From IMG/VR virus record IMGVR_UViG_3300030451_004849, positions 1 to 52,948 of that record: a stretch of 52,948 nucleotides of DNA. One strand, given 5' to 3'. Source of the stretch: a virus. Lineage: Duplodnaviria > Caudoviricetes. Under the pieces are notes generated by a model, which was not told the DNA's origin, ran no database searches, and saw only the letters and a list, made by a program, of their open reading frames with translations. Numbering within the stretch: position 1 is the first letter of the stretch; each line of letters starts with the position of its first letter. Positions 1 to 50,411 of this stretch are shown here, piece after piece. The position numbers and the translations under genes were made by a program.

Positions 1-21
1 CACTAAAAGTGGCAGGGACCA
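1..21. repeat. Terminal overlap (left copy); genome circular or circularly permuted
   Basis: cactaaaagtggcagggacca (1-21) matches cactaaaagtggcaggggcca (52928-52948) at 20/21 nt; the giant ORF reads in frame across the junction. Confidence 0.9.
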
Positions 22-9000: not shown

Positions 9001-9067
9001 CAGTAGTTTGCTGATTATAGAATGGCTTGAAATCGACCAGCCTGTCGAGTTCAGCATATTCCGACAT
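1..9067 (-). CDS. Giant (~3087 aa including the part across the junction) virion-associated two-barrel RNA polymerase / ejection protein
   Basis: Manual translation from ATG 9067 (GGAG RBS upstream): MSEYAELDRLVDFKP...; same frame carries ESTDGSI (D~946), LGKFMF (K~988), PESAAK (K~1017), LRVP (R~1335) and GGADLDGD (DLDGD at 4934-4948). No ORF is listed in this frame, consistent with no stop before the window edge; continues at 52927 to the stop at 52731. Confidence 0.85.
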   Translation of the reverse strand, partial: MSEYAELDRLVDFKPFYNQQTTARLLDAYKQKPWVFKPELVSQLKNHAVHYKMDIPEPPKGSPRDSEFDLLRGIKGMGEGFLSGFSTFNVGEPSQNEYERIMRSIGQLGGFVGYIPSAPFKVLGMKGLAEAARALKGNSVPLWLSNKATEKVAPIVSKTLTKAAEVKNSAYSDVAKFLTTDNAKHVAEGAFNLGVASSISAWQLGVNEMLKAGLHGGLTGGAFRGIANLVNKGGIPKLDQETGKMVYTATQNEDRLIRAAASSLYEGLQSSMRGETTPEQIYSYLLGAYFGAHETTAGQMRAMRFTEKVEQQAKTTAKELKRLDENGNPFQWDMQVYDPRLVKGFDDLPKDIQESVISNIAMRHGTFGSQAVMAGETIDGIKDAIDVDITSEMVSNSVREAKINEAAKKYETKVEVEKQVTPEYIEANQEKVFLTSGELNKEGNVKEINKNVIELPLKGMTDETLPLNRKRIKEALDQIPEGKKVVIPETIFNALKNNAPDTLNYLQKRIGDVITGREKAREQLEKDGRIDSQKELDKVEDFDIGDAPDVIIRKKARFFVSKYLPKVLDGLDSEAMGVKKVEAEKKIYDILEKHKSLDKFDKFLGDIQKAFPEQPAFDNIAEGELRQMLIRKVEQRPTPHFSLQFFPNVDNRTSLMVLEGAQAENLAGNLKSTGDSVKAIEFAYENIYRKATGKDAPDRAYMVLDHAVTQRGNKLVEIPLKDLNKKGNFTGWGGKSAKRAQSAANKLLAQSLKQAHELGYYYNGGKGDSGKMYFFKYHPDVVNVKKLKPEVDGVLKVFKETTPDAVKHYNKLKNKFINRNKAAFNRKEASEYFDRSFLSNLMWDKELYGLKKSSYGKNKDGSDRNFIHWIRDNSSIKDAKGFNKRNQIWMTDGFQADAKYFNKIYQEMGGDKSMANGQVSFRLFKEADNKNLTSDDKAVLYTESTDGSILAEATFVDALNKTFGMPESGQNKSFIVGSDPTHGAMLGKFMFHKATPEASEYMRKEGIQFLMPESAAKEYGSRKIGELKVNDDLSVDYTGGETYKMNLSDIRGSLSEKQSDHMLKPQLIPKQLMANLHEHAFKSIPQEQINKFFNEIIGDRYIGEESWNARLNQALKQKELTRFEQDEILDNIDKLGLSETIDAIKSENHPQFVARIYQKILRSNVDRLTQDYSSGEISRAEYLDAVAEAKTFTSNINRLMEIYPDLAIFLHKDVRNYLQSSMRNFVVNKVVRPKWDTSISVRMRGYDPWLVKKFPELNFNTSGKGAPANRKILKERYGVENPDQLFFLDDYYKDVSWDVSNIITSSKQRMTLGELWSKYGHQPKVKEFFKTISLRVPMDSISGAHELTFAGFTGIKGHGAVFHPRTMRALGGADLDGDKAFVLFGLDKAHRKMYHDNKYEYRDPKSKIIKDNKTAEISKEGLKVLKSTLDPNNAHDAAVLAKIKQGKVTYQDLLTTTNDGDAKALELKKSIVGKYTPQSRMDIAADASTGRDQLGPAVVQKQVLNSTYDALLKNSIQRFVNKKGNIITTEDYEALPESKRKGWKADYREAINFSPRGEKKAYTIYIEPRVTEAELAYSRELSRAQIGFGSDPLDEVGLTGADHYFNTGWHSLFKIDWNNAPKDVQAKFVPHFHARKGTYKIFADFNKAYFSRNWDQGRRFYAHEVYDMSQGIHKLNEAQRGTMLPKMVEILEPLDYTDDIIRRVNPETLEARYEDFNSNLALELKGINDGYNKPGGLLGRESFKSVDNPIIYRVIGKQLYLPKVRAELAKNPNLYKELFEDLPGQWKDKKFLEKSFPWEHANKYKSVEDLAQAISDSESYRFRAIDRLYRQGTEFAQNDAMDRTSAIQLLRAIKDAREKGVSDEFINNMANFVNHTKQIERAQKLKAAERSIVDQEEVVMLDDKGKYYLKTLFEVDPELKTFALQEKIDTRIRGFKLNNAWKKKQGGEGVLTKEESYLFDTMMLSSYYKGPDLTKLAAYKKLNNDVRQLVAPLIKEIQLGGSGTYFNKTGLSSKYVNDGAIRDFFKQYAEEFNYVSEPLKESKTTADMETKGELKEIAPQDPMENDLQGVMDIRERAKKAGPFKLTDAERKMVDELIGHIKHYHNSVGSIDNLNLIARGLRQKNFDAFTVDDFRVMNNFFREMRTGSIFVKPGKLTADGIVKLSQRHWMLFPRAVSKEMMVKDFTIFEQQGRFQNFKGEWVGGTQGVPTHTIENIQYVLGRTEALAVKMDQDEKIKLETELRDKTGYESVEDGLGYHFAEIVSAERALRAFKGKRRSMSSAEYHTKKAEYEASLKEAKELANWAENEKKVFNVSRPGGSFKKTGREIANDINNVLTNRAIETFKWIRGSHYMFDTKSQTYIRNSKVEDPIEQFILKDKKGKNQYWANNTSIPKIDAPKFTRYLMNILKSGEPMKMNLGLDNLRKISRSIMLDRLMSERSLVTDKASIELYDSMILSLQNQKLDLTNYYKPNDYHPQFIHNKAVAKAAIEKAIDKIKSQTGKGPDWQKNEIKKLMGQYKSMTGDWIISDITQDTIEMGALREIADKRKGEHLSHLEKNPIAPNMMSRSSDLPGWSRDIGSWDIYQKNLIDTYFRQIGQIMSKKMLQDFSEKVSVEWKDPGQVHAWKNYIQDYISRALGFPSKLPENWMDGPEADLMKVKGTPYSWYADNHVKNRLNKIRKSLGFKEDLRLPEELRGLDEMDIRHWSNLEAKYEMATLLAHPKSAAANIFGGTLHTIQSSGWRNWRNGRSVEYFRTHVGGDAGKWKSKEDIDKWVIGHGVVPDFILYEAGLNPSFKSAKWKHFLNDAKKVLEKDPNVKDETLISIAKKHKITESAFQKAAWFMREPERMLRRDSFAAHYLQARELYGHSNMPLDHPLLIEMAKKGVQATQFLYSAPYRPAFSTTALGKVMTRFQTWAWNSVRFRNDAYRQAKMLGFRRGTPEFEKFKRQYLTDMFVFGLGNVFAYSLFESAMPAPWNWFQDTADWIFGDEKERDRAFFGQWPTALAPLQMVTPPGLRLVPATFS

Positions 9068-14539: not shown

Positions 14540-17500
14540 TTAGTTAGTCCCCGTATTAGATACTTGCCACGTCAAATATACTCTAAATATATCATCTCTA
14601 TCAGATTTTGCTGTAATTTGTATTCTACCCTTATTGTTACCATAATGGTAAGGTCGAGCGCCTGTCGTTGTTCCTGAGGTCATTACAGGGACTCTTTGAT
14701 AAATAGAGTGATTGTGCAAGCTATTTGTAGATGTAGTCGCATTACCCCAATCAATACCTATAGAATCTCCAAATGAATACCAACTACTCCAAGTATCACC
14801 AGTACCATAGCGATAATATAATCTTATATAGTCTTCTGCACCTCTTACAGCATCTGGTTGAAAATAAGCAACACAGTTTAATGTGTTATAATACCCAGCA
14901 TTATATATAGTATCATAAAAATTATTATCATAAGATTCTTGAGGAGTTGACCCTATAATGTCTCTAGTATATTTATAATAAGAGCCAAAAATGTGGTGTG
15001 GTACATAATAATATTGATTTGTTTCGGTATTAGGCTTTAAACTTCTTATTATAGGTTTGTCGTTAAAAGATACTCTTGCGTCAAAAACAGGAGCCTTGAT
15101 AAGCCCTTTAAATTCCATCTGCCCTGTAGATGAATCAAATAAAATCTTAGGCTGAACACCAGTTCCTGGTATAGTCACCCCACTTCCAGCTCTGACACTA
15201 AATTTTTGAGAGCTATTTACAGTTCCTAAGAAAAAACTATTATTAGTATCATATCCTCCTCCATTATTCATGATATGAGCATTATCACCGACTCGCAAAC
15301 TTCCTTGCATGCTAATATCCCCAGTATCGCCGCTTATAATTACACTAGGGGAACCTTGTGAAAGCGAACCAAACATTAAACTGTTACCATTCCAATTAAG
15401 TTGATTTACACCGTCATCATCTTTTAATTGAAATACAGAATTACCAGAATTTAAACCAAAGTATGTTCTCCAATTGTCTCCATCATATATTCCAAATATA
15501 TCACTACCTGCATAAAATCCTGCTCCTGCTGGCGGTGCTGCAGGTAAAGCTAAACTTGAATCAATATACATTTGCACTTGGTCAAAATATACATGCTCAA
15601 CACCTGGAGATTCTTGACTACTATGTTCATCTACAAATATCCAAGGAACTACCCACCCAATAGGCTCTGTTGAACCTGAAAAATTCCAAGTAGCAGGAAT
15701 AACCCATGTACCTTGAAATTGATTCCATGAATTTGCAGTTTGGTCTGTTTTTGCTATACTATACCAAGTCCAACTAGTCTTGTCTGCATTATACATTTTT
15801 ACACCGACTCTACCTAGTTCATTTTTAATTGCTTGCTGCCATTGTCCAGATTTAATATATCCCATAAATGAAACCGAAATCTTCATTCCAGGAACAACAG
15901 GGTATACTGTTTCTGCTCCTGTTAAATCAGTTTGATAGGCGTCTGAATTAGCATTTGTACCACTTACTATTGATGCTCCTTTTAAAGAATAATCTCCAGA
16001 AGAAGGGTTAACATCTCCTGAGTCCGCTTTAGAAAATAAAGATGAATTACTACCATCTCCTCCTTTCCACATTTGCATATTATCATAATTAGAGCCAGGG
16101 TCAGGGTTAAATTCCATATTCCAATCAACAATCATGTTTCCACCAATTTGTTGACTGATCCATTCTGCTGCCTGATAATTTGAAAGAGCATCAAAGTTAG
16201 GTAAATTATTTAAATCAGTTCCTAAATCATCTATACTATCTGATAAATTGTCTAATTCTTGCTGTAACCCTCCACCAGTAACATTAATATCTCCTGATAT
16301 AACTAAATTAGAGCCGTCCCAAGATAAACCGACACCTTCACCAGATTGATCAGTTTGCCAAGTGTCACTAGTATCCCCTGTATTAACTAACGCAGAACCT
16401 AACCTAAACGTTCCATCTACATTAAGTTCTACTTTTTTACTTCCATTGTTATATATATTTAAAGGAGTATTAAAAAGCCTTAAGCCCTTATTGTTATCTA
16501 TAGTAGCACCTTTTAAATAAGATGTGCTTAATGTTGCATCATCGGCGATTATCATACCAAAATCAACATCTTCATTTTCGCTATAATCTGCCATATTACG
16601 CAAGTTACCCAACACAACTACCTTTTTAGCAGCATCCCATGCTGTATCAGTAGTTTTTGCGGCATTTAAGCTTATTCTAGGGCCATAACTATTTAATGTA
16701 GAGCCAGTAGACGTTAATTCAATATATCCTTTATTTCCAGCTCCTCCTAATTTGTATAAACAAACTACAGCTTCACCTGGGTTCCAAGTATTTTGAACAC
16801 CATCGTTATTTACATCTCTATTGGTTATTTGTATTCTATATTCTGGATTTGCAGAAGTGCCATAATTCGTATCATCATCAACTGCACTTGTTTTTATTAC
16901 CTCAGTTTTAGGAGCACCATCATCTTTTATTCCTTGTAATATAACATAGGCATTTTTTAGATTATCATCATTATGCTCTACTGCCATATAACCTGTTTCT
17001 GTATTAGACAAGGTCTGAACTAATTTTGTTGTAGGTGCTATTAATAACTGTCCTCCAATAGTACTCATAACATGCATAGCAACTAGATTTTGAACAACTA
17101 ATTCTCCAGCATGAATACTATTAAATTGCCTATCTAAATCACCTAAATTGGTTTGAAGTGTCCCTTCTGGTAAAACTGCCTTACCAGCGGGTAATAAGTT
17201 TATATTACCTATAGTTTCAAGATTTAAATTACCACCTGTATCTACTTTAAAATCAAAGTATTTATTAGAGTCATATTCAATTCTTAATTGACCTACAGAC
17301 CTTGTGTCTCTTATAATAACACCAGGTTTATTTTGGTCATCTGTTAAATAATGATAATCTTGCCCAAAGTTTGAGTGGCTAGCAACATCTATAAGCACAC
17401 CACCATCTATTCTAGTAGGTCCATATATTCTAGTTTTATTAGACATAGAATCGATAACATTAATATTTAAGTTACCTTTATTAAGATCTACATTTCCACC

Positions 17501-18331
17501 TAGCTCAGTATCATTGTTTTGTAATTGAGCGTAAGAAACTACTAAGTCTCCATCTATCCTAACATCTCCGTACACATCTAATGCCCAATCAGTTCCAGAT
17601 GTTGGACCATTTATAGTAAGTTTTTTACCAGTTGTTCCAGGCGTTGTTCCACCAAAGGTATTAGCTCCTTCCCATACATAATCTGGAGCAGGGTCAATTT
17701 TATGCTTATGATCCCATCTAGCTGCAACATTTTGACTACCTGTATCGGCATTAGTATTATCAACTAAACTATCTGCTATATTAGGTGGAGATAAAGGGAA
17801 GTGTATAACGTTTAGATGATTGTTTTCATCATTATATGTGATATTACCACCAGTATAAGATAGGTCTAAAAGAATAGGGTTATTAAGAGTCCAGTGTTCA
17901 TGAGTGTGATTACCTACTGCTACTTGATCTGCTTGAGTCCCAACATCAGAGTTTCCTGCTAAATTTTCAAAGGTAACGCCATATTTAGTTATATAAGGCT
18001 CTATTCCTTGTCCAGGCATAGTATATGTAGCTATATCTGAATTATCGGGATTTTTCTCCTCTAAAGTAAGATTTACTGTTGCCCAACCATCATCAAACCT
18101 ACCTTGTAAAAAATAACCACTAGATCCGTCTAACCCCGAACCTTTATAAAGGCGCATGTCTCCTGGTTTACCAATAATTCCTTGTACGCTTGAAGTTCCA
18201 CTTGGAAAGTTTACAGCATCAGCGACACTATTTAAATCTTTATATATAGTATCTACTATTCTCTGTACTTTTGGGTCAGAGATTTTAGGAGCACTTTTCC
18301 TTAATTTTCCTAAAGCACCTCTTATTCCCAT
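14540..18331 (-). CDS. Large tail fibre / receptor-binding protein with carbohydrate-binding-like domain
   Basis: 1263 aa, Gly/Asn/Thr-rich beta repeats; segment from GGNMIVDWNME to HVYFDQVQM resembles a jelly-roll CBM. Confidence 0.65.
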   Translation of the reverse strand: MGIRGALGKLRKSAPKISDPKVQRIVDTIYKDLNSVADAVNFPSGTSSVQGIIGKPGDMRLYKGSGLDGSSGYFLQGRFDDGWATVNLTLEEKNPDNSDIATYTMPGQGIEPYITKYGVTFENLAGNSDVGTQADQVAVGNHTHEHWTLNNPILLDLSYTGGNITYNDENNHLNVIHFPLSPPNIADSLVDNTNADTGSQNVAARWDHKHKIDPAPDYVWEGANTFGGTTPGTTGKKLTINGPTSGTDWALDVYGDVRIDGDLVVSYAQLQNNDTELGGNVDLNKGNLNINVIDSMSNKTRIYGPTRIDGGVLIDVASHSNFGQDYHYLTDDQNKPGVIIRDTRSVGQLRIEYDSNKYFDFKVDTGGNLNLETIGNINLLPAGKAVLPEGTLQTNLGDLDRQFNSIHAGELVVQNLVAMHVMSTIGGQLLIAPTTKLVQTLSNTETGYMAVEHNDDNLKNAYVILQGIKDDGAPKTEVIKTSAVDDDTNYGTSANPEYRIQITNRDVNNDGVQNTWNPGEAVVCLYKLGGAGNKGYIELTSTGSTLNSYGPRISLNAAKTTDTAWDAAKKVVVLGNLRNMADYSENEDVDFGMIIADDATLSTSYLKGATIDNNKGLRLFNTPLNIYNNGSKKVELNVDGTFRLGSALVNTGDTSDTWQTDQSGEGVGLSWDGSNLVISGDINVTGGGLQQELDNLSDSIDDLGTDLNNLPNFDALSNYQAAEWISQQIGGNMIVDWNMEFNPDPGSNYDNMQMWKGGDGSNSSLFSKADSGDVNPSSGDYSLKGASIVSGTNANSDAYQTDLTGAETVYPVVPGMKISVSFMGYIKSGQWQQAIKNELGRVGVKMYNADKTSWTWYSIAKTDQTANSWNQFQGTWVIPATWNFSGSTEPIGWVVPWIFVDEHSSQESPGVEHVYFDQVQMYIDSSLALPAAPPAGAGFYAGSDIFGIYDGDNWRTYFGLNSGNSVFQLKDDDGVNQLNWNGNSLMFGSLSQGSPSVIISGDTGDISMQGSLRVGDNAHIMNNGGGYDTNNSFFLGTVNSSQKFSVRAGSGVTIPGTGVQPKILFDSSTGQMEFKGLIKAPVFDARVSFNDKPIIRSLKPNTETNQYYYVPHHIFGSYYKYTRDIIGSTPQESYDNNFYDTIYNAGYYNTLNCVAYFQPDAVRGAEDYIRLYYRYGTGDTWSSWYSFGDSIGIDWGNATTSTNSLHNHSIYQRVPVMTSGTTTGARPYHYGNNKGRIQITAKSDRDDIFRVYLTWQVSNTGTN

Positions 18332-21300
18332 TAATCTACCTTACGCTGTATGTATGTTATTGCAATTGAGTCAATTTCAACGTTAGAGTTTATAATTTCT
18401 AACCTTAATTTTTTAGTTTTATTTTTTGGCATTCTATATTCTCTCTCATGTTCTTCGTCTTTAAATTTCTTTGCTGAAGAAGTATGAGATGAGTCGTCAT
18501 GATTACACTCATATAATAAAACATCGTCAGAATAAACCTTTAGATGATATTCTGCATTAGCAACATCTGTAGTGTTATTCATGATAAACTTAATTTTTTT
18601 AATCTTTTTATCTACTGTAGCAAACCCAAAATCTATACTAGGGGTATAATGAGTAAATTTACTTCTAGAAGAATCTTCATTTAACTGATACAAGTATGTT
18701 CCATCAGAAAGGAATCTTTCTCCAAATTTACCTTGAGCAAACGATAATGGTCTTGGTATATCAATTAAATCCCATCTATTTCTAGGTATATTATAATTCC
18801 AAGAACCTTTGTCTCCATTAGTGTCTTCCCACATAAACATTACAGTTTGGTTAAAAGCATCATAAGCTACATAAGGGTCGTATGCGTGATTTATGTTATG
18901 CCAATTAGACTTTATTGTATTGGTTTCATCAAATTTAGCATTTTTTAGTATATCTGTTCCTATTGCTTGAACTTGAGAGCCGTTATGCATATACATATTA
19001 TTTGCATCACAGAAGAAAAATCCAAAATCGGTAATTATATAAGATTGCTCACCAAAACAACCCACACCTTTGTGTTCATCTTCTATTATTAAAGAGTTTA
19101 CGTCAATTTTATACATGTTAGATCTATCAAAAGCAAACAATCTTCCTGCAAAATAAGCAAGAGCAGTAGGTTCATTTGGCAATATTAAATAATCTCTAGC
19201 CCAATTAAATATAGAATAATTTCCAGGTTGACTTCTATATATAAAGTTTTGACCATTCTTTATCTCTGGGTGAAAGCAGTTTCCTGCTATTAAATATCCT
19301 CCTGCAGTAGTTGATAATTTATAATTTATACCTGTACCTCTCATTGATTCGGGCATACCAGTAATAGACTCATAAGTTCCACTTAAGTTACCATCGTCCA
19401 CTTCAACCTTAAAGAACATGTCACCTGATTTTCCCCAACCTGTTGATAGGTCTAACTCAGATACCATTCTATAAAAGTCTTCTACATTATTTTTTCTATA
19501 TATCATTACATGAGTCGCTCTTGGGGGAGGACTCTCTAGTTTGACTGTCATGATAACTGTATTGCAATTTGCTGTAGGGGAATATACAAAGTAGAATGTA
19601 GTTAATGGACTCTCTTGGAACCCATCATACAAAACAGACATTTTGTAATAATAGTTGGTACCAGCATTAAAGTTTCCTGGTTCCGCTGAACCATCTACAA
19701 CATCTGTTGCGTCTCCATCTTGTAATGCTATACCATAAGGTAATTCACTATGTTCATGATAATGTGCATACGTGTCTAGATATAAATCGCTGCCTTCATT
19801 GCTGCTTAAATCAGTTGGAGCAATCCACCCAGTACTAGGGTTATAATTAGCCTCTGCATTAATATATTGGCCCATCCTAGGACTTAAAAAGAATCTTTCA
19901 TTTCCACTTGCATAATCATGAGCAAATGTCGAACTTCCTAAGTCTTCAAAAATCATAGGCACAAAGTCAGTTCCATTTACAGGACCTACAGGGATTGTTG
20001 AATCTATAGGCTCTGTTCCAGTTCTGTCTGGATAAGAATAGGTGTATCTTTGTAGGACTGTAGAGTTTGTTTTTTCTCCTTTTACAGAAAACCAAAAATT
20101 AGTAGTTGAACTTTGAGCCATTATTTTATTAGTACTAATTATATTAGCTATATTATCTGGAAGTCTATTTATATCATTCCAACCAGGATAACCTGTAGCT
20201 ATAGTTGCAGAAGCAAACCTTCTAGCCATCATATTTATTTTATCACTACTACTATCTAGTTTATAATTTGATTGTCTAATTGCATATGTATCTGAATCAC
20301 TATCCCAAGACGTAGCATATCCAGTAGATGGATCTAACCCTCGAGATACTCTCCTATGTCTAACACCTTTATGTTCTGGGTCAATAAAAAATAACATAGT
20401 TTCATCTAAATCTATTGTAGATGAATTTCTAACGGGATAAGCATAATACCATCTTTTAGGCCACTTACTTCTTCTAGCTGTATCCATTTCTCCCATATCA
20501 GTAACATATTTACCTTTTAAATGAGCCAACATACCTATTCTATGACCATGACCTAAATCAATTAGTCCTTTTGGATGAGGATTTATTTCATAATCAACAC
20601 TTTTATCAAAACCTCCATCATAACCCATATCCCAGTTTGCTATACCATTTCTATGCCAATGTCTTCCATTTAAAGAGCTCCAATCGTTATCTCCTGGATC
20701 TCCTAATTCGTCTACACCTCTATATTTTAATTTATTTTGCCTAGCACTATAACCAGCACCTTCAGTACATACATAAGGAAGACTTCCAAAATTTATATTT
20801 TGACTAACTTCATCACAATATACTGAATAACCGCTGTTAGCGCCTAAATTCCACGCATTGCATTTTTTCATTTTTAATGCAGGAGGAGTATGTTCGTGTA
20901 AAGTTACACTATTGCCAGACCAATTAATGTCACTAACATCAAAACTATAAACAAATTCTTCATCCCAAGTAAATGGTCCAAAATCTTTTTTAGTAAATAA
21001 CACCCAAACTCTGTAAGTACTACCATCATAAGTTTCAATTATGTCTTGAACTTTTGTTCCTGCCCCTGGAGGTCTTGTGAAATTGAATTGTATTGCACTT
21101 CCACTTAAACCAGTTGTAACATCTAAAGTGTTTGCTGATGTGTCAAATTTAGAATAAAAAAGCTGTATCCCTTCTTTATATTTATTTGAAGCCCACCAAT
21201 ATGTAGTGTTTGCATCATGTGTATGACTACTATATATTGTAGTGTTGTCAGCTGCAGTCCAATCACTTTCTGTCGTTCTATTATAATTATTAGCCCACTG

Positions 21301-22794
21301 ATATTTAGAAGGTGTGATTACTGTTGGCGTAAAAGGAAGTTTAGTAGTAGATTGTACTTGAACACCTAGATCAGTATTGCTTGTCGAATTACTACTAGTA
21401 TCTATAGCAAATAAATCCATCATTCCATCTGCTATACCATATACTTTGAGAGAATCTATAGCTTCTCCTAATGTTGATCCATGCCTATTGTAAGACAACC
21501 AAGAAAGATTAAATACTGTTTGACCATCATCTATAGGATAAACTTCTGCATCTTCTAATCTATAATCACCTACAGACTCGTCAAATTGTTTATGATCTAA
21601 TTTTCCAAACCATTTAGTTTTAGCTCCTTCAGTATTTCCACAACCTATATATATGTGAGCATTATTTTTAGTTAAAGACACATCTTCTGGCTCATTAGGT
21701 ATATCAAAATGGACAGTTTCATCATTTATAGTAGTATTAGCAAGAATTTCTTTTTCGCCGTATATATCTGATAAAATTTTCATTCTATAGGTTGTTCCAG
21801 CACCTGTATCAGTTTCTGGATCATAACCTGGAAATGTTACATCATTTTCAGTTACAGAATAAAAAGCTATATTGTCTTTATTTTCAGAATTAAATAGTTC
21901 CATTTCCGTAGCATTAACTTCTAAATACGACGTAACATCTTCAACAACCTTATACGGACCTGTAGAACCTCCAATATTTTCATTTAAAGTATTAGGCCTT
22001 GTTTCATCTTCAGTAAAAGTTCCATAAGAACCGTGAGTTTTTAAACTTACATTCATATGCTTTACTTCAAACTCAGTACCATTATTAGTATATTTTGCAT
22101 CAAATAACAACTCTAAAGACCTGTAAGGCGGAAGAAGTCTTAATGGCACAGGATCTCCACTGCTATAAGATGCTCCATTATCTGCGTCATGAGTAGATGT
22201 GTGACTTGTTATAAATTCTTCTCTGTCATTAGCTACATTAAATTCAGTTACGTTCTCCAATGGATATGGATACTCTGTTCCTTTTTCACCTCTAGCAAGC
22301 TGAACTGTTAAACTTGGTGCAGATAATGCATCTAAATATGTTTTTATGTCAACATAATGCTGGTCATTTTGCATTTTATATATTTGAGCATCAGTAATAT
22401 TAGCTATACCGCTATTATCTACTGGAGACCAATTTATAGTATGAGTAATAGGTGTAGTTCCTAAGCCTCCATGATTAAAGGTTATAGTATAAGGCCATCC
22501 TCCTAGTAAAGAGTTTCCTGTCGCATCACGATAAGCATATGTGCTTTCATCTGCATAATCAAACCAACTGCCGCTACCTCCACTAATTACATCTGGGTGA
22601 GTTAACTTAAAAATTATAAGTTCTTCATTAGGCAATACTTTTATATGCTCTTTAACGCCTTTTAATTTGCCTTCCTCTGATATAGGGTCTATATTCTTAC
22701 TATATATTGCCGACTCTTCTTGTACATCAGTATCTGCAGCAGCACTTTTAGTTCCTGCCTGAAATCTTCTCAATTCTTTTAATTGCTTTGGCAT
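18331..22794 (-). CDS. Tail nozzle / head-stabilisation protein (P22 gp10-like) with large insertion
   Basis: N-terminal MPKQLKELRRF..G...SKNIDP...GKL; C-terminal propeller-like region with GVGC, FFCD and IDFGFATVDKKIKK motifs typical of podovirus nozzle proteins. Confidence 0.6.
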   Translation of the reverse strand: MPKQLKELRRFQAGTKSAAADTDVQEESAIYSKNIDPISEEGKLKGVKEHIKVLPNEELIIFKLTHPDVISGGSGSWFDYADESTYAYRDATGNSLLGGWPYTITFNHGGLGTTPITHTINWSPVDNSGIANITDAQIYKMQNDQHYVDIKTYLDALSAPSLTVQLARGEKGTEYPYPLENVTEFNVANDREEFITSHTSTHDADNGASYSSGDPVPLRLLPPYRSLELLFDAKYTNNGTEFEVKHMNVSLKTHGSYGTFTEDETRPNTLNENIGGSTGPYKVVEDVTSYLEVNATEMELFNSENKDNIAFYSVTENDVTFPGYDPETDTGAGTTYRMKILSDIYGEKEILANTTINDETVHFDIPNEPEDVSLTKNNAHIYIGCGNTEGAKTKWFGKLDHKQFDESVGDYRLEDAEVYPIDDGQTVFNLSWLSYNRHGSTLGEAIDSLKVYGIADGMMDLFAIDTSSNSTSNTDLGVQVQSTTKLPFTPTVITPSKYQWANNYNRTTESDWTAADNTTIYSSHTHDANTTYWWASNKYKEGIQLFYSKFDTSANTLDVTTGLSGSAIQFNFTRPPGAGTKVQDIIETYDGSTYRVWVLFTKKDFGPFTWDEEFVYSFDVSDINWSGNSVTLHEHTPPALKMKKCNAWNLGANSGYSVYCDEVSQNINFGSLPYVCTEGAGYSARQNKLKYRGVDELGDPGDNDWSSLNGRHWHRNGIANWDMGYDGGFDKSVDYEINPHPKGLIDLGHGHRIGMLAHLKGKYVTDMGEMDTARRSKWPKRWYYAYPVRNSSTIDLDETMLFFIDPEHKGVRHRRVSRGLDPSTGYATSWDSDSDTYAIRQSNYKLDSSSDKINMMARRFASATIATGYPGWNDINRLPDNIANIISTNKIMAQSSTTNFWFSVKGEKTNSTVLQRYTYSYPDRTGTEPIDSTIPVGPVNGTDFVPMIFEDLGSSTFAHDYASGNERFFLSPRMGQYINAEANYNPSTGWIAPTDLSSNEGSDLYLDTYAHYHEHSELPYGIALQDGDATDVVDGSAEPGNFNAGTNYYYKMSVLYDGFQESPLTTFYFVYSPTANCNTVIMTVKLESPPPRATHVMIYRKNNVEDFYRMVSELDLSTGWGKSGDMFFKVEVDDGNLSGTYESITGMPESMRGTGINYKLSTTAGGYLIAGNCFHPEIKNGQNFIYRSQPGNYSIFNWARDYLILPNEPTALAYFAGRLFAFDRSNMYKIDVNSLIIEDEHKGVGCFGEQSYIITDFGFFFCDANNMYMHNGSQVQAIGTDILKNAKFDETNTIKSNWHNINHAYDPYVAYDAFNQTVMFMWEDTNGDKGSWNYNIPRNRWDLIDIPRPLSFAQGKFGERFLSDGTYLYQLNEDSSRSKFTHYTPSIDFGFATVDKKIKKIKFIMNNTTDVANAEYHLKVYSDDVLLYECNHDDSSHTSSAKKFKDEEHEREYRMPKNKTKKLRLEIINSNVEIDSIAITYIQRKVD

Positions 22795-38715: not shown

Positions 38716-39123
38716 ATGAGAGTTCAAACAGACAAAACTAAACTGCACACTAAATGTGTAGAGTATGAAGATAATAGTAAATGCATTACAAAAATAAGAC
38801 AATATTTAATCATAAATAAAGGTAAAGCAGTAGGAATAGCTGCAAATCAACTATTTATGAACAATAGAGTCTTTGGTATATGGTATAACAATAAAATAAT
38901 GATTTTTGAAAATCCAGAGATAATAGCATACAGCGGTGATGACTTACAAGACAGCACTGAAGGATGTATGTCTATTAAAAATGGAAAGAAACCATACCAT
39001 TTAAAAAGACCAAGACAAGTAGTGATAAAGAATGGTAAAGAAGAATACACATTCAATGATTACTACGCAACAGTAATATGTCATGAAATGGATCATTTAA
39101 ATGGTAAACTTATAAGCGATTAG
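38716..39123 (+). CDS. def: Peptide deformylase (short viral type)
   Basis: GIAANQ, EGCMS and HEMDH motifs. Confidence 0.92.
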   Translation: MRVQTDKTKLHTKCVEYEDNSKCITKIRQYLIINKGKAVGIAANQLFMNNRVFGIWYNNKIMIFENPEIIAYSGDDLQDSTEGCMSIKNGKKPYHLKRPRQVVIKNGKEEYTFNDYYATVICHEMDHLNGKLISD

Positions 39124-41545: not shown

Positions 41546-42976
41546 ATGCAATTAATGAAAGAAATGCTCGAATTTTGGCTAGAATCAACAGCCAATTTAG
41601 AAGAGTTACCAATACCTTTAGAGCAACAAGCCAAAAAGATAAGCATAAAATATGAAGTAAAGAAAGTAGAGCTAGAAATGCCAAAGTTCAATCCACAAAC
41701 AGAAGAAACTAATATGGAATTGACAGATTGCTATCTAGTAAACTTTAAAGATATTATATGCAAATATCGTCCTCATTTACATTTAGGGGATTATTGGTTA
41801 AATGTTCAATTCGCAAATGGTCAACCGCAATATATGTTTTATTATCCATTAACAATAGATGGTGTAGTAAAATGGCAACATGCAGACCATCCTCATTTAA
41901 GTGGAGGTAAGCCGTGTTTTGGTAGTCATCAAGGAGATATTGCAGATGCTATAACATCAGGTAATTATATGAGATTCTTTTCTCAAATAAAAGCATACTT
42001 GAGTAGTTATTATGGTAGAAGCACATATATAAGAGGAACAGCATACAAAAAAAGAAAAATATGTTATAGTCTTTATTCAAGACAAGAAATATTTGATATG
42101 TTTGCTCCCGAAGTTGATGAACCAGGTGATATGGATATACAAGGTTTAGCAAAAGATCCAATGCGTTGGAACTGGCCTAAAGATATTCCAGCTTGGGGTA
42201 CTATCGAAGTACAAGGTCAAGAACTAAGACAATTTTATAGAATGCTAAAAGTATCAGCAGACTATAGATTGAGCGGTCTTGACATAGAGTTTCCATTTAT
42301 AAGCGAACAAAGCACTTGGGAAGATAATTTAATGACATATGCTTATAATGATAGAAATCCATTGGCAGAGGCCATGAATAAAATATTGGGATATATCTAT
42401 CTAGCTAAAATATATGGCGAAATGAGTCTTCTAGAGGCAACTGAATTTGTTAGAATATTTTTAATTAAACTATATCTTGATTACACAGGAGCATTAGATA
42501 GTGAAATGATGAAAAGTTTAAAAGAAATGTCTGATAAATTAAACGCTTGCGAATATCAGAACAAATGGAATCTAAATAGAAGGTATACAGTAGTATTAGA
42601 CTCTAAACGAAGAGAAGATACTAGCAAACTAAGAAAGGATCTACGTAAGATAATAGGTGACGGAGGAACATCAGCTAAATTTATTAAAGAGCTGAAGTTT
42701 GCTGGACACAAATTATCTAATTTTATGATTCTACTTAGAAAAGGTAAACCAGAAAATGCAACTGCAACAGGATATTTGTGGAATGCAAACTCTGAAGATA
42801 TAGACTTTATAAATTATCGTAAAAGATATAGAGCTATAGAGAGATTTGTATATACACAAGCAATGCAGCAGTTAGAAAAAGACAAAAGGAGGTTCGTAAA
42901 TGAGCTCAACAAGTCCGACATTATACATCTCGAAACAGATGATGGACAAGCTACATTATTTTCTCAAGACCTTTAA
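41546..42976 (+). CDS. E2 (UBC-fold) conjugating enzyme with long C-terminal extension
   Basis: HPHLSGGKPCFG matches the E2 HPN/HPH...C active-site motif (Cys codon 41915-41917); start at ATG 41546 after AAGGAGG. Confidence 0.72.
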   Translation: MQLMKEMLEFWLESTANLEELPIPLEQQAKKISIKYEVKKVELEMPKFNPQTEETNMELTDCYLVNFKDIICKYRPHLHLGDYWLNVQFANGQPQYMFYYPLTIDGVVKWQHADHPHLSGGKPCFGSHQGDIADAITSGNYMRFFSQIKAYLSSYYGRSTYIRGTAYKKRKICYSLYSRQEIFDMFAPEVDEPGDMDIQGLAKDPMRWNWPKDIPAWGTIEVQGQELRQFYRMLKVSADYRLSGLDIEFPFISEQSTWEDNLMTYAYNDRNPLAEAMNKILGYIYLAKIYGEMSLLEATEFVRIFLIKLYLDYTGALDSEMMKSLKEMSDKLNACEYQNKWNLNRRYTVVLDSKRREDTSKLRKDLRKIIGDGGTSAKFIKELKFAGHKLSNFMILLRKGKPENATATGYLWNANSEDIDFINYRKRYRAIERFVYTQAMQQLEKDKRRFVNELNKSDIIHLETDDGQATLFSQDL

Positions 42977-43739
42977 GAATCTTGAATGGTCTGGCCCTGC
43001 TTGGTATTCTCATGAAAAAGATGAGAACGGGTTTCCAGAGAAAATAAGACTTGAGTACTGGTATCCTCTTGATTTAGGTACTAGTGGTAATACAGATTGG
43101 GATGGCAAAGACCTAATCAAATTGTATCCAAAATTAAGAAAAGAGTTTCCAGAAATAGGAAAATCTTGGGTACAAGGTAATGTTCATTCACATCATAGTA
43201 TGGGTGCATTCTTTTCAGGTACTGATGAACAACAATTAATAGATGGAGCAAATGAAAATTTTTATTATTCATTAGTTGTATCTACTAAACCTGGAAAAGA
43301 ATTGTTCTTTGGTGTTAGTTATCCTGATCAATTTGGACAAATACATATTGTTGAAATAGATAATATTGAAACAGAAAGTGTTGCAGAAGTATTGCCTGAA
43401 TGGAAAAAGGAAGCTAAATGGATAAAGAAAAACAAAAAGCCAGAAACGACTACTCTTTTCAAATATAATAATAGAGGGACTAATCATCAGGCTACTTTAT
43501 TCGGAGACATCAAGGGCGAAGCCCAAAAACACGACGAAGCCATAGACATCAACGACAGGTATGATGAATATCTTGACTTTAATTCTTACAACGCAATAGG
43601 ATCAGAAATGGACTTTGACGTATTCCAAGAATATGACAAGATAATGCTTGACTTTGACAGAGGCAGAATAAACAAGAAAAAGCTTAATCAAAAGCTTAAA
43701 AAACTAGGAGTAGACGAATATGGCAGACAGGTATCTTAG
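42900..43739 (+). CDS. JAB/MPN+ (JAMM) metalloprotease
   Basis: N-terminal catalytic E (LEWSG) and HSHHSMGAFFSGTD matching HxH-x7-S-x2-D. Confidence 0.9.
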   Translation: MSSTSPTLYISKQMMDKLHYFLKTFKNLEWSGPAWYSHEKDENGFPEKIRLEYWYPLDLGTSGNTDWDGKDLIKLYPKLRKEFPEIGKSWVQGNVHSHHSMGAFFSGTDEQQLIDGANENFYYSLVVSTKPGKELFFGVSYPDQFGQIHIVEIDNIETESVAEVLPEWKKEAKWIKKNKKPETTTLFKYNNRGTNHQATLFGDIKGEAQKHDEAIDINDRYDEYLDFNSYNAIGSEMDFDVFQEYDKIMLDFDRGRINKKKLNQKLKKLGVDEYGRQVS

Positions 43740-44382
43740 AAACAAAGACCTTATCGACCAATCTAAATTGGACAAGATAACGGTTATAGGTGCTGGCGGA
43801 ATAGGTTCGGCATTACTTCAAAACGCTGCAATAATGGGATTTAAGGAAATAACAATTTGGGACCCTGACAGGTTAGAGGAACACAATCTATCCACAACCT
43901 CATGGCCAGAGTGTTACTTAAATTGCACTAAACTTCAAGCAGCAGAAGAAACATTACATCAGTTAAATAAAAGTTGTAATGTTAAAGCAAGACCTCATTT
44001 TTGGGAAAGTGGAATGCCATTGGAAAACAAAGTATTTCTAACACCAGACAATATGGAAGTTAGACTTGCAGTATATGAACAATGGAAAGAAAACCCAAAT
44101 AGAGAGTTCTTAATAGATATGAGGATGGGAGCATTGGGTTATGAAATAATAACTGTTACCCGTGAGTACGATTATTTCATGGACTCATATGTTCCTAGCT
44201 CAGAAATAGCTGACGATCCATGTACAGCTAAACATACAATCTTTTGTGGTTCATTAGCAGCATCATTTGGACTATCACAAGCATTTAATGTCTTGCAAAA
44301 TAGATTGTATTATGCGTACATTTGGGGGTCGTTAGGTCCTGTTAGTTTAAGACGAGAACACCTCGTTAAACCTCAACAGTAA
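43720..44382 (+). CDS. E1-like ThiF/MoeB-family adenylating enzyme
   Basis: RYLRN, VIGAGGIGS, DPDRLEEHNL, DN...R and IDMRM motifs; candidate catalytic Cys in DDPCTAK. Confidence 0.92.
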   Translation: MADRYLRNKDLIDQSKLDKITVIGAGGIGSALLQNAAIMGFKEITIWDPDRLEEHNLSTTSWPECYLNCTKLQAAEETLHQLNKSCNVKARPHFWESGMPLENKVFLTPDNMEVRLAVYEQWKENPNREFLIDMRMGALGYEIITVTREYDYFMDSYVPSSEIADDPCTAKHTIFCGSLAASFGLSQAFNVLQNRLYYAYIWGSLGPVSLRREHLVKPQQ

Positions 44383-49282: not shown

Positions 49283-49400
49283 AGATGGTAATGCTTTGAG
49301 ATATTACCAGGCATATAATCTCTTAATGGAGTATTGGGATAATATACCTGATGAGGACAAAAAGAAGGTCTCAGACAAATTACATCAAATGGGACTTTAG
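49185..49400 (+). CDS. Hypothetical protein
   Basis: RBS GAGGAG before MSKSK. Confidence 0.6.
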   Translation: MSKSKSTRESLRKMSKEQLIRQIDFYQKDLQVKDGNALRYYQAYNLLMEYWDNIPDEDKKKVSDKLHQMGL

Positions 49401-49405
49401 TAAAA

Positions 49406-49495
49406 TTAAAGGGCGGAGTACAAAGGTAATAGAATAACTAAGGTTAGGATATTGAAGCTTTCTCGTCGGAAAAGAAGTGATATTCTGCCCTTTAA
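49406..49495 (+). ncRNA. Long-stem-enclosed RNA element
   Basis: ttaaagggcggagta/tattctgccctttaa 15-bp stem with two GU pairs, ending just before an AAGGAGG RBS. Confidence 0.55.
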
Positions 49496-49512
49496 ATTTA
49501 AGGAGGTAACTA

Positions 49513-49806
49513 ATGAGTTACAAAATGACGCAGTGCACAGCATGCGGGAGCTACATTTCAGCTATGGCTTGCAATTTTGGATGTCCACATTGTGGATATA
49601 CAGACGGCTGAGATGCAACAATTCCTCCAGTGGAGGAGATTAAAGGAGTCGGCAATGGCAATGACAAGGAAAGATTACGAAACGATTGCAGCTGTATTAA
49701 AGAGCTTCAATCATCTTCACAAGAAGATAGTAAAAAGTGTAACAGATGCTCTAGTAGAGCAACTAGAAAAAGAGAATCCAGCATTCGACAGGAAGAGGTT
49801 TCTTGA
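49513..49806 (+). CDS. Small zinc-finger protein, candidate selenoprotein (UGA at 49609-49611; 32 aa if UGA is a stop)
   Basis: RBS AAGGAGG; MSYKMTQCTACGSYISAMACNFGCPHCGYTDG-UGA-DATIPP; hairpin tcctcc-agt-ggagga with loop 17 nt after the UGA. Confidence 0.55.
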
Positions 49807-49828
49807 AGCGTGTGGATTCATAAAATAA
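49655..49828 (+). CDS. Hypothetical protein (MTRKDY...IA type)
   Basis: RBS AAGGAG; ends ENPAFDRKRFLEAC. Confidence 0.7.
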   Translation: MAMTRKDYETIAAVLKSFNHLHKKIVKSVTDALVEQLEKENPAFDRKRFLEACGFIK

Positions 49829-49840
49829 GGAGGGCATAAA

Positions 49841-50083
49841 ATGCCATATACTAAGTTAGGTAACGTAACAATGTACGTTAATAAAGACGCAACAGAAGAG
49901 AATAGACAACCACATTTCAAAGGTAATATTGAAATAACAAAGACTATTCCAGCTGGTGCAAAAATAGGCGTAGCGGGCTGGTTAAACGAGAAAGGATCTG
50001 ATAAAAGTCTTTTCTTTAGTGTGTCTGCTCATGATGATGAACTAAAAAATGATAAGGAGGAAGACCTGTTCCCACCACAGTAG
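49841..50083 (+). CDS. DUF736-like putative ssDNA-binding protein
   Basis: N...QPHFKG...VAGW...SVS with acidic tail. Confidence 0.55.
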   Translation: MPYTKLGNVTMYVNKDATEENRQPHFKGNIEITKTIPAGAKIGVAGWLNEKGSDKSLFFSVSAHDDELKNDKEEDLFPPQ

Positions 50084-50186: not shown

Positions 50187-50411
50187 ATGAGTAAAGTTAC
50201 GTTGGTAAACCTAAGTGGAGCAGGAATGGACAATAGGCGTCCAGACCAAGATAAAACCAAAATCAGAAGCACCAATGTATTACCAGAATACCAGGGATTA
50301 GATGTGATTACTAGAGCAAAAAAAGCAGCTAATGCCGTATCTGATAATGGTCGATGTTGGTGGATTTATGATTATGTTTACAGAGAGTTAACATGGAGGG
50401 ATAAAAGATGA
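50187..50411 (+). CDS. Hypothetical protein
   Basis: 74-aa ORF, ATGA coupling to the next gene. Confidence 0.6.
   Translation: MSKVTLVNLSGAGMDNRRPDQDKTKIRSTNVLPEYQGLDVITRAKKAANAVSDNGRCWWIYDYVYRELTWRDKR

Follow-up and report, generated by a model that had tools for sequence, protein, structure and literature searches.

An invariant in-frame UGA followed by a SECIS-like hairpin marks a candidate recoding site, possibly for selenocysteine, in a zinc-ribbon gene of marine phages

What do ribosomes do at the TGA that follows the 32nd codon of a small zinc-ribbon gene in an uncultured marine phage? The gene lies in the IMG/VR record IMGVR_UViG_3300030451_004849, whose 52,948 nucleotides form the window analyzed here. 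Its ORF translation MSYKMTQCTACGSYISAMACNFGCPHCGYTDG follows the pattern C8-x2-C11-x8-C20-x3-C24-P-H-C27-GYTDG, then TGA, then D. A first-pass annotation had described this cysteine pattern with the aspartate behind the UGA, a strong ribosome binding site, and a frame that stays open to position 49806, and had proposed that selenocysteine (Sec) is inserted at the UGA. The described features were all found again in the sequence (Table 1), with AAGGAGG 6 nt ahead of the ATG and 64 codons up to a second TGA. TGA was also said to be a normal stop elsewhere in this genome (GC content 34.6%), which is correct: 5 of the 56 crude ORFs in the window end in it, including an HNH endonuclease gene in which the TGA lies within an ATGA overlap. 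It is nevertheless a rare choice, the usual stop being TAA. The zinc-ribbon gene, the UGA, the hairpin and the open frame beyond the UGA are shared by the window and its relatives, which make up a marine phage family.

Table 1. Coordinates of the features at the zinc-ribbon locus, in window positions.
Feature	Position	Strand	Remarks
Shine-Dalgarno AAGGAGG	49500..49506	+	Read from the sequence; 6 nt ahead of the zinc-ribbon ATG at 49513
Zinc-ribbon ORF, 32 codons	49513..49608	+	Five invariant Cys: C8/C11/C20/C24/C27
In-frame TGA	49609..49611	+	Proposed recoded codon, residue 33
Extension, 64 codons	49612..49803	+	Zinc-ribbon frame; hydrophilic, poorly conserved; overprinted on the next gene from 49655
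SECIS-like hairpin UUCCUCC[AGU]GGAGGAG	49622..49638	+	Loop 49629-49631; loop G 49630, 19 nt past the UGA
Shine-Dalgarno AAAGGAG of the downstream gene	49642..49648	+	6 nt ahead of its ATG; conserved in group-A relatives
Downstream gene, 57 aa, MAMTRKDY...	49655..49828	+	Function not assigned; +1 frame relative to the zinc ribbon
Second stop TGA	49804..49806	+	Closes the extension

To characterize the short protein, its sequence was compared with those of its relatives and with family collections. Residues C8, C11, A17, A19, C20, F22, G23, C24, P25, C27, G28 and G32 are invariant in 22 distinct relatives. The two knuckles that define a zinc ribbon, CxxC and CPxCG about 12 residues apart, are present in 22/22 as C8-x2-C11 and C24-P-x-C27-G, and the 32-residue product is a complete four-Cys ribbon. 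Matches to known families are weak, and all point to zinc-ribbon families: the best Pfam match, HVO_2753_ZBP, reaches 15.6 bits against a curated cut-off of 33.2, NCBIfam PRK14890 matches 11 of the 22 members (best E 7.7e-4), and the best PDB match has an E-value of 0.053. A match to a 2335-aa protein (P0009) was rejected as an unrelated repeat protein without the Cys pattern. Cultured phages yielded no similar DNA. The zinc-ribbon Shine-Dalgarno sequence AAGGAGG is unchanged in a close relative (L002/L022). The 57-aa product of the downstream gene, whose overlap with the open frame the first-pass annotation had overlooked, matches phrog_19432 (E 4.4e-7), with 20 relatives in viral contigs and weak tblastn matches in cultured phages.

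The window and the 31 related loci that were retrieved all have TGA at the end of the ribbon (32/32; 22 distinct sequences). Neither TAA, TAG nor a sense codon occurs at this position among the 32 sequences, and thus homologues ending here with TAA or TAG, which the first-pass annotation had named as evidence against its reading, were not seen. A TGG variant, which would fix the long form, is likewise missing from these 32 sequences. In contigs of three other sequencing runs no variant at 49609-49611 was found among the variants listed (40 of 44), while the neighbouring positions 49605, 49608, 49614 and 49615 do vary, and synonymous sites vary on both sides of the TGA. The sole sense-codon variant, a Leu in P0004, stems from one 682-bp contig that looks error-laden. 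Neither the 31 loci nor protein searches of 1.8-5.8 billion sequences yielded a homologue with Cys at this codon; the TGY-containing homologues expected from the selenoprotein proposal did not turn up, and the sixth Cys that had been proposed for the UGA position was found in no relative or family.

The hairpin behind the UGA has six Watson-Crick pairs and one U-G pair in the window, lies with its loop 17 nt from the UGA, and carries G as the second loop base, the loop distance and the G being as previously claimed. Judged by the window alone it is not beyond chance: its fold z-score is -0.91, and an equally good fold is obtained in 28 of 200 shuffles. Hairpins of similar quality stand behind 136 of 1829 TGA triplets and 37 of 626 ORF ends. 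The comparative data, by contrast, place the feature far beyond chance. A hairpin of 4-9 pairs with a loop of 3-5 nt stands at the same place in all 22 distinct sequences, 6-15 nt past the stop and with its loop about 20 nt away. Throughout this set the distance from the UGA to the loop is 16-19 nt, the loop G falls at nucleotides 18-21 after the UGA, and a G[G/U] is present. It is the distance to the UGA that is kept, not the one to the next start codon, which was calculated to be 8-24 nt away. In a MAFFT alignment 77.9% of the cells are paired, compared with 66.8 +/- 2.3% in shuffles (0 of 500 reach the real value) and with 43-52% when the pairing partner is slid out of register, and four of the seven pairs have changed on both sides. 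When the sequences are instead put into a hairpin-centred register, 81% are paired and six of the seven pairs have changed on both sides.

Codon choice within the hairpin is also biased. At the hairpin site GAG is used in 19 of 19 cases, against 24% of Glu codons genome-wide, and CAG in 9 of 9, against 21% of Gln codons. Before a TTG codon, Pro is written CCG in 8 of 8 cases, against 3.7% of Pro codons in the genome, while CCA and CCC are found only before GTG, which itself supplies the loop G. Rare codons of this genome thus hold the loop G and the stem. The stability of the hairpins ranges from -2.3 to -8.6 kcal/mol. RNAalifold returned no consensus structure in two attempts, and a scan of positions 49300-50000 with the Rfam covariance models at E-values up to 10 gave three matches, all outside the SECIS families; bacterial SECIS elements are poorly captured by these models, according to a passage of preprint 10.64898/2026.04.03.716425. 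Searching the window and 15 other loci with a covariance model of the site revealed no second copy, the next best hit scoring 15.8 bits at 49735-49777, and nowhere else in the window does a TGA occur together with a real gene, a long open frame and a hairpin of this kind.

We next consider the frame past the TGA, which is open for 14-73 codons across the relatives (64 in the window). It is the -1 frame across real downstream genes, which belong to at least five gene families and always lie in the +1 frame. For frames of this type the background run to a stop has a median of 4 codons, with a probability of 0.5% for runs of at least 50; the 64-codon run is therefore unusual (P ~0.4%). At third positions where T would create a stop, T occurs in 0 of 308 cases within the overlap (21 loci) and at none of the 21-25 such sites in the window, compared with 108 of 299 (36%) in the remaining parts of these downstream genes and 42.5% of 4552 sites in background genes. 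A natural control is provided by 16 distinct loci in which the 57-aa gene has no zinc ribbon upstream, and there the same frame is open for a median of only 8 codons. Between the TGA and the next gene lie 14 codons, and most of their variation falls at third positions (GAT/GAC, ATT/ATA, CCT/CCC, CCA/CCC/CCG, GAG/GAA). As the selenoprotein proposal would lead one to expect, the stretch past the UGA is thus conserved as coding sequence, and from this pattern of evolution we infer that the extension is translated.

The tail itself consists to 70% of K/R/E/D/S/N/T/Q and looks disordered. It evolves faster than the gene that it overlaps, with 45-51% versus 68-75% identity. In one relative (L052) the UGA and the hairpin are kept, and the tail is only 14 residues long and overlaps nothing. 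Other ways of reaching this frame or its neighbour were considered and rejected. The extension has no start codon of its own; as for an independent start inside it, GTG or TTG is present only in group A, and most tails lack Met. A +1 frameshift into the downstream gene does not agree with the +1-frame stops that many loci have before the next start, and GGN UGA lacks re-pairing. A bypass from GGC to a downstream GGC in the style of T4 gene 60 fails because group B lacks the matching downstream Gly codon and because the sequence that would be skipped evolves like a coding one.

These data bear on two readings in which nothing is recoded at this particular codon. If the TGA were a plain stop, only the 32-residue protein would be made, the hairpin would act between two genes in regulation or processing, and the composition of the downstream genes would leave the frame open as a by-product. 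Such a reading agrees with a hairpin that is not significant in the window alone and with the table-11 gene callers, which stop the protein at this TGA (P0002, P0003, P0007). It also agrees with the overlapped genes being better conserved than the extension frame: relative to L002, 7 of the 8 substitutions in the 57-aa gene fall at its third codon positions, and 6 are synonymous. However, it leaves unexplained why all 32 sequences have TGA where TAA is usual, why T is avoided at every one of the 308 sites across five downstream gene families yet occupies 36% of such sites just beyond the overlap, why the frame closes early in the loci without a zinc ribbon upstream, and why third positions vary in the 14 codons that precede the next gene. 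We consider a plain stop improbable. The opposite reading, that every UGA is read as sense, through genetic code 4 or 25 or by a suppressor tRNA of the phage, and the gene encodes an ordinary 97-residue protein, is close to refuted. It would account for the W at this codon in five database proteins (P0005, P0006, P0008, P0010, P0011) and would suit an AT-rich genome. Three of these residues, though, trace back to loci that have TGA at the codon (L044, L024 and L041, encoding P0005, P0010 and P0011), which makes the W a table-4 gene-call reading. Moreover, the window contains unbroken table-11 ORFs of at least 3021, 1487 and 1263 codons, long ORFs write Trp as TGG 249 times in 15,716 codons, TGA serves as the stop of several genes including the one for the HNH endonuclease, and no tRNA was found in the phage or in five complete relatives. 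Taken together, the UGA is very probably a programmed recoding site of some kind.

Which decoder acts at this site is less clear-cut. Bacterial SECIS elements have been described with loops of 3-9 nt, stems of 4-16 bp, a G early in the loop with G or U after it, and 16-37 nt between UGA and loop (PMC13188914, in part). Another source gives, in an excerpt, a stem of 6-8 bp and a conserved loop G about 20 nt past the UGA (PMC4605307), and the minimal E. coli SECIS is given as a 17-nt stem-loop in a passage of a third (PMC11431864). Loop size, stem length, the distance from the UGA and the loop G of the phage hairpins lie within these ranges in 22 of 22 sequences, while the energy limit of the SECIS model, -7.5 kcal/mol, is reached by only 4 of 22. 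The geometry therefore fits a bacterial SECIS in all points but stability. Of the earlier proposal of Sec insertion, the parts that held are that the UGA is not a plain stop and that the hairpin belongs to it; the supports offered for Sec itself, a Cys homologue and a sixth Cys, did not. The UGA site also forms no CxxU or UxxC motif and lies at the border between the folded ribbon and the tail. To our knowledge, Cys homologues exist for nearly all accepted selenoprotein families. On balance, we consider a host selenocysteine system, with Sec as residue 33, the likeliest decoder, at a little under an even chance.

Under the selenocysteine reading, some ribosomes would stop at 49609-49611 and release a 32-residue zinc-ribbon protein with five Cys. 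Other ribosomes would insert an amino acid and read 64 more codons; the resulting form would have 97 residues and end in a hydrophilic tail that overprints the next gene. SelB with Sec-tRNA(Sec) would bind the hairpin at 49622-49638 through the apical G-U about 20 nt past the UGA and deliver Sec into the A site. Sec33 would then lie six residues past the last Cys in a C-x3-C-x2-C-x5-U string. The fifth invariant Cys, C20, is surplus to the four-Cys ribbon; it would pair with U33 and was counted for Sec. In its full form, which we put forward tentatively and at somewhat less than an even chance, the proposal is that this would be the first bacteriophage-encoded selenoprotein family, with host SelB and tRNA(Sec) recruited by a minimal SECIS-like hairpin of 13-19 nt and a metal or redox centre formed by the C-x3-C-x2-C-x5-U string. 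The tail would have grown over the downstream gene since a SECIS must be translated, the ratio of the short to the long form would report the selenium or SelB status of the host, and the gene would mark Sec-using hosts.

If an ordinary near-cognate tRNA (for Trp most probably, else for Cys or Arg) carried out programmed readthrough in the manner of Q-beta A1, a small and constant fraction of ribosomes would misread the leaky UGA and append the tail, which would also yield two isoforms, with a hairpin that tunes termination or serves, for example, the initiation of the next gene. The invariant TGA and the stop-avoiding open frame count equally for this explanation. Of the stop codons, UGA leaks most and is decoded by tRNA-Trp and tRNA-Cys, and the extensions added by readthrough are usually disordered and low in complexity, as stated in a section of PMC7026636; the tail fits this description. 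The short product is already a complete ribbon, the lack of a Cys homologue and of a redox motif would need no explanation, and no special host machinery is required, which makes near-cognate readthrough compatible with any host. In group C, the Shine-Dalgarno sequence of the next gene coincides with the hairpin's 3' arm. In all relatives the residues just before the stop are [D/E]-G, and in E. coli termination at UGA is weaker when the penultimate residue is acidic. On the other hand, a covarying hairpin with a loop G-U kept at synonymous sites would be superfluous for mere leakage, and we know of no such bacterial readthrough stimulator. The hairpin is positioned according to the geometry for SelB as outlined in part of PMC4605307, and not as a roadblock at the mRNA entrance. 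The 14-residue tail of L052 would be odd if the tail were the payload, and the absence of TGG from all 32 sequences does not favour a near-cognate tRNA either. We regard this explanation as plausible, if somewhat less likely than insertion of Sec.

Several observations bear on the host. The phage encodes a peptide deformylase, indicating a bacterial host. Its TerL is at most 28% identical to those of cultured phages, and the nearest TerL relatives in genome collections lie in two archaeal-labelled MAGs, in which no tRNA-Sec or selD was found above the cut-off; this link is a weak pointer and probably a binning artefact. The zinc-ribbon family was not found in the genome contig collection, and no WhiB was found in five genomes. 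A protein atlas assigned the helicase only to 'Viruses' and gave a two-member hint at Actinomycetota for the deformylase. Sigma-70-like promoters and terminators were not enriched, and no RNA run is listed among the sequencing runs that hold the site. AT-rich marine bacterioplankton with a full Sec system do exist (Actinomarina), and SAR11, a leading AT-rich marine host candidate, is given as lacking selC, both according to excerpts of preprint 10.64898/2026.04.03.716425.

The locus resembles several known systems in part. Like bacterial selenoprotein genes, with E. coli fdhF as the model, it has an in-frame UGA, a hairpin within the ORF, an apical G-[G/U] about 20 nt on, and translation that would pass through the hairpin. 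It differs from them in the missing Cys homologue, the missing CxxU or UxxC motif and the hairpins, most of which are weaker than -7.5 kcal/mol. Unlike in those genes, the carrier is a phage, and what follows the hairpin is a tail that looks disordered and is written over another gene. The FmdB family is a zinc-ribbon family. Ocean selenoproteins of this family (COG2331) are likewise small and Cys-rich, with Sec predicted in marine samples, but there Sec lies within a CxxU knuckle and 807 Cys homologues are reported (PMC2398784, in part), whereas here it would lie six residues past the last knuckle and no Cys form was found. No sequence relationship to the FmdB family was seen.

In Q-beta, an RNA phage, minority readthrough of the leaky UGA by tRNA-Trp adds a C-terminal extension, A1, and gives two products, as in a passage of PMC8310308. 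Here, in contrast, the phage has a DNA genome, the short product is a 32-residue zinc ribbon and not a coat protein, the stop is followed by a conserved hairpin with a conserved loop, and the next gene is overlapped by the extension in a different frame. Stop-recoded phages read TAG as Gln or TGA as Trp across many late genes, often with suppressor tRNAs, whereas here a single codon in a single gene is concerned, TGA still works as a stop in other genes, and no tRNA was found. As in the overprinted genes of phiX174, one DNA is read in two frames and the younger frame is hydrophilic and poorly conserved, but the second frame is reached through an upstream stop and not from its own start codon.

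In the literature searched, recoding of a single stop in a phage is that of the RNA phage Q-beta and viral selenoproteins are those of a few poxviruses, and a phrase search found no paper on a phage selenoprotein. Either recoding reading, Sec or near-cognate, would be new for a DNA phage, and here a whole marine family keeps one UGA, one hairpin and one overprinted frame. If the selenocysteine reading is true, the gene would be the first phage selenoprotein, its hairpin a very small natural SECIS in AT-rich marine bacteria, and its presence a marker of the hosts of uncultured phages. If near-cognate readthrough is true, the site would be the first structured readthrough signal in a DNA phage and a clear case of a tail overwritten on neighbouring genes. 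Selenoprotein searches that rely on Sec/Cys pairs, as described in part of PMC2398784, and standard gene callers both miss such genes, and a table-4 'W' in public protein sets can mask recoding sites. The site spans about 330 nt, which is short enough for reporter work.

The first-pass annotation had described this locus as a candidate phage selenoprotein gene, with an in-frame UGA followed by a SECIS-like hairpin, and each of its sequence details (ribosome-binding site, ORF, UGA, hairpin and open frame) was correct. The features are listed in the table below. The window is a complete metagenome virus record of 52,948 bp with a GC content of 34.6%. The frame behind the TGA under study, which would be residue 33 of the zinc-ribbon protein, shares 50 of its 64 codons with a downstream gene of 57 amino acids that has 20 relatives among viral contigs.

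Features of the zinc-ribbon locus and the peptide deformylase gene
Feature	Position	Strand or frame	Basis
Shine-Dalgarno AAGGAGG	6 nt upstream of 49513	+	read from sequence; strong
Zinc-ribbon ORF, 32 codons, MSYKMTQCTACGSYISAMACNFGCPHCGYTDG	starts 49513, TGA at 49609-49611	+	read from sequence
Extension, 64 codons past first TGA	second TGA 49804-49806	+	in-frame translation
Hairpin UUCCUCC[AGU]GGAGGAG	49622-49638	+	sequence and folding
57-aa gene, MAMTRKDY start, own AAAGGAG	from 49655	+1 frame	phrog_19432, E 4e-7
Peptide deformylase	38716..39123	+	Pfam Pep_deformylase, E 3e-18

Judged from the window alone, the case for recoding looked weak, and a plain stop with an off-frame artefact behind it seemed the likelier reading. 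The fold of the hairpin was not exceptional (z = -0.91, with 28 of 200 shuffles equally good), hairpins of loose SECIS geometry lie behind 136 of the window's 1829 TGA triplets, and no Rfam family matched at the site. A locus 96% identical to the window (L002) differs from it by 8 substitutions behind the TGA, 7 of them at third positions of the 57-aa gene and 6 synonymous in that gene. However, this picture was overturned by the comparative data. A covariance model of the recoding site also gave a second, weak match at 49735..49777 (+) (15.8 bits, rough E 0.017), where GCUC[UAGUA]GAGC lies within the 57-aa gene; since no TGA precedes it, this match is probably due to chance.

When the read-through translation was used as a HMMER query against 1.8 billion representative proteins, the matches ran on past the stop and carried tryptophan at its position. 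Through alignment of these proteins, 18 viral and 13 metagenome DNA loci were fetched, while genome_contigs yielded no locus of the zinc-ribbon family. The homologous codon is TGA in 19 of 19 sequences including the window and in all 13 metagenome loci, which together comprise 22 distinct sequences; homologues ending here in TAA or TAG, which would have spoken against the first-pass annotation, were not found. In contigs at least 80% alike from three further marine runs, no variant stood at positions 49609-49611 among the entries listed (40 of 44), and 49605, 49608, 49614, 49615, 49617 and 49618 were variable. The tryptophan in these database proteins is an artefact: three loci (L044, L024 and L041) encode P0005, P0010 and P0011 exactly, with TGA at that codon, so that these proteins were table-4 gene calls. 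The same tryptophan occurs in P0006 and P0008, which are known here from protein entries alone. Such residues in AT-rich metagenome proteins can conceal recoding sites or produce false extensions.

The extension measures 14-73 codons across the loci. Of the 22 distinct loci, 21 have an extension that enters the next gene, every time with that gene in the +1 frame. No fewer than five families are represented among these downstream genes: the MT[RK]KDY gene, a phrog_6802-like gene and three others. For the same frame relation the background run to a stop has a median of 4 codons, and runs of at least 50 codons have a probability of 0.5%. A stop is created in this relation by an overlapped-gene codon ending in T before a codon starting with AA, AG or GA, and third positions before such codons are therefore stop-prone. 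In 30 long window genes T occupies 42.5% of 4552 such sites, and in the remainder of the downstream genes 108 of 299, compared with 0 of 308 within the overlaps, where the G+C of such positions is 46%, up from 14%. A natural control is provided by 16 distinct loci in which a homologue of the 57-aa gene lacks an upstream zinc ribbon: here a stop closes the corresponding frame after a median of 8 open codons (range 3-58), and only one of the 16 loci reaches 40. Most groups of loci lack a separate start codon for the extension, and in the 14-codon stretch that leads from the TGA to the next gene, variation is chiefly at third positions. The conservation past the UGA that the first-pass annotation had proposed as a check is seen as a frame kept open by avoidance of stops. 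From this selection we conclude that translation most probably begins at the zinc-ribbon start codon and continues past the UGA into the extension. In two relatives without the zinc-ribbon gene (L004 and L005, ~1850-1990), another small CxxC...CxxC ORF, MQKLKHKVNCLSC...FCFNCHDLLNEII, with an ordinary end lies directly upstream of the 57-aa gene homologue.

In 22 of 22 distinct sequences, the minimum-energy fold calculated for the first 32 nt behind the UGA has a hairpin at the same position, with 4-9 pairs and a loop of 3-5 nt. A gap of 16-19 nt separates this loop from the UGA, and its first G is at nt 18-21. The stem arms differ between groups (CCUCC/GGAGG, AUCUC/GAGAU, AGCUC/GAGCU, UCCUA/UAGGA). 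In an unguided MAFFT alignment 77.9% of cells were paired, compared with 66.8 ± 2.3 in shuffles (0 of 500 as high) and 43-52% with slid partners, and both sides had changed in 4 of 7 pairs; a hairpin-centred register, which is biased towards structure, gave 81% and 6 of 7 pairs. RNAalifold found no consensus structure in either alignment, and single-sequence energies were modest (-2.3 to -8.6 kcal/mol). All loops (seven GUU, four AGGUA, three GGU, three GUA, two AGUUA, and one each of AGU, CGU and CGUU) contain a G followed by G or U. This pattern is held at synonymous sites by codons otherwise avoided in the genome, namely GAG in all 19 cases (24% of genome Glu codons), CAG in 9 of 9 (21% of Gln codons) and CCG in 8 of 8 before UUG (3.7% of Pro codons); before GUG, which brings its own G, CCA or CCC is used instead, and in group C the Ser codon AGU supplies the loop G-U. 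The hairpin keeps a tight distance to the UGA, whereas the next start codon lies anywhere between 8 and 24 nt from the hairpin. Together with the codon bias, this indicates that the hairpin belongs with the UGA and that its loop sequence matters. In the window and its group-A relatives, GCUGA (49607..49611) can additionally pair with UCGGC (49649..49653), located between the Shine-Dalgarno sequence and the AUG of the 57-aa gene, in a lower stem around the hairpin that includes the UGA itself and is absent from other groups.

A genome-wide code change was rejected: ORFs of at least 3021, 1487 and 1263 codons stay uninterrupted under table 11, there are 249 TGG codons, and tRNA genes are absent from the window and from five complete relatives. 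As the first-pass annotation had held, UGA is a normal stop elsewhere, ending the HNH endonuclease gene and 5 of 56 crude ORFs, compared with 41 of 56 for TAA. Three other routes, a frameshift, a bypass and a start inside the extension, were also weighed and rejected. The longest ORF, at 2..9067 (-), runs off the record start and is adjoined by those at 18331..22794 and 14540..18331 (both -); their proteins are very large for a 53-kb phage. The TGA stop of a 74-codon gene at 50187..50411 (+) overlaps the start of the following gene as ATGA and has 44 open codons behind it (P about 4% in a frame of this type); a search for a SECIS-like hairpin after this TGA found none.

We regard recoding of some kind at the UGA as highly probable, and a plain stop, to which the single-sequence results had seemed to lend weight, as improbable. 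Insertion of selenocysteine is a tentative reading that falls somewhat short of an even chance. The minimal E. coli SECIS element has to be placed 11 nt from the UGA. The known factor that reads the loop is SelB, and the selection seen on the loop in these phages points to a putative factor of this kind. The hairpin agrees with the bacterial SECIS model, as outlined in part of PMC13188914, in loop size, stem length, G[G/U] in the first loop positions and spacing, and is a 17-nt stem-loop, as is the minimal E. coli element in an excerpt of PMC11431864. The fifth invariant cysteine, C20, would complete the string C20-x3-C24-x2-C27-x5-U33. Its CxxxCxxC part produced weak Radical_SAM matches in 8 of 22 members (E 0.012 or higher), a possible similarity to be taken as no more than a lead.

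Near-cognate readthrough, in which a standard residue is inserted, is the other of the two mechanisms that remain and is judged somewhat less likely than selenocysteine; several observations favor it. Contrary to the first-pass expectation, no homologue with Cys at the UGA codon was found in the loci or protein searches. The sole sense-codon form, P0004, has Leu and lacks the zinc ligand C24; it comes from one 682-bp contig in which single G>T changes make up 8 of 19 differences. No CxxU motif is formed at the site, and the UGA separates a finished four-Cys ribbon from a tail that is 70% K/R/E/D/S/N/T/Q and conserved at only 45-51%, compared with 68-75% for the overlapped genes; readthrough extensions usually look like such tails, according to a portion of PMC7026636. 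The -7.5 kcal/mol of the SECIS model is reached by only 4 of 22 hairpins. Two more observations bear on the choice between the mechanisms. One locus (L052) retains UGA and hairpin with a tail of just 14 residues and no overlap, which suggests that the tail may matter less than the residue put in or the recoding event itself; pointing the other way, the strong avoidance of stops in the other loci suggests that the tail is usually wanted. The remaining probability falls to explanations we have not thought of.

Among known systems, the phage gene comes closest to bacterial selenoprotein genes that carry a SECIS inside the ORF and to the Q-beta A1 readthrough protein. It departs from the former in two of the customary criteria, the existence of Cys homologues and the stability of the element, and agrees with them in the others; it looks, and may work, like a selenoprotein gene, and is not classed as one because of these two differences. 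In the full-text literature, phage selenoprotein searches returned only eukaryotic-virus cases, and phage UGA readthrough only Q-beta-type cases and genome-wide recoded phages. Ocean selenoproteome surveys depend on Sec/Cys pairs, as stated in a section of PMC2398784, and would therefore have missed this family. With either selenocysteine or readthrough, this would be a new recoding case in an uncultured marine DNA phage family, and the claim of recoding is easy to test.

Formylation of the initiator Met is confined to bacteria and organelles, and since the phage encodes a peptide deformylase, its host is bacterial. The closest protein-atlas clusters of the deformylase are viral, apart from one small Actinomycetota cluster (2 members). 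Cultured phages gave no megablast match, with TerL identity of at most 28%. The TerL relatives L053 (68% identity) and L054 (59%) are short contigs in two MAGs labelled archaeal; they have the same GC as their MAGs and lack the zinc-ribbon gene, and searches of these MAGs for tRNA-Sec and selD returned nothing over cut-off. Because the window encodes a deformylase, their archaeal placement may be a binning artefact of mis-binned viral DNA. The runs containing the sequence are marine or seawater metagenomes, and marine AT-rich bacteria with a complete Sec system exist: a 2026 preprint (10.64898/2026.04.03.716425) gives selA, selB, selC and selD in 84 of 84 Actinomarina genomes, and selC in 0 of 135 Pelagibacter genomes. 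The window further carries a ThiF-family ORF at 43720..44382 (+) (E 1e-16), adjoining an ORF at 42900..43739 (+) with a weak JAB-domain match below the Pfam cut-off, a pair that resembles ubiquitin-like conjugation modules.
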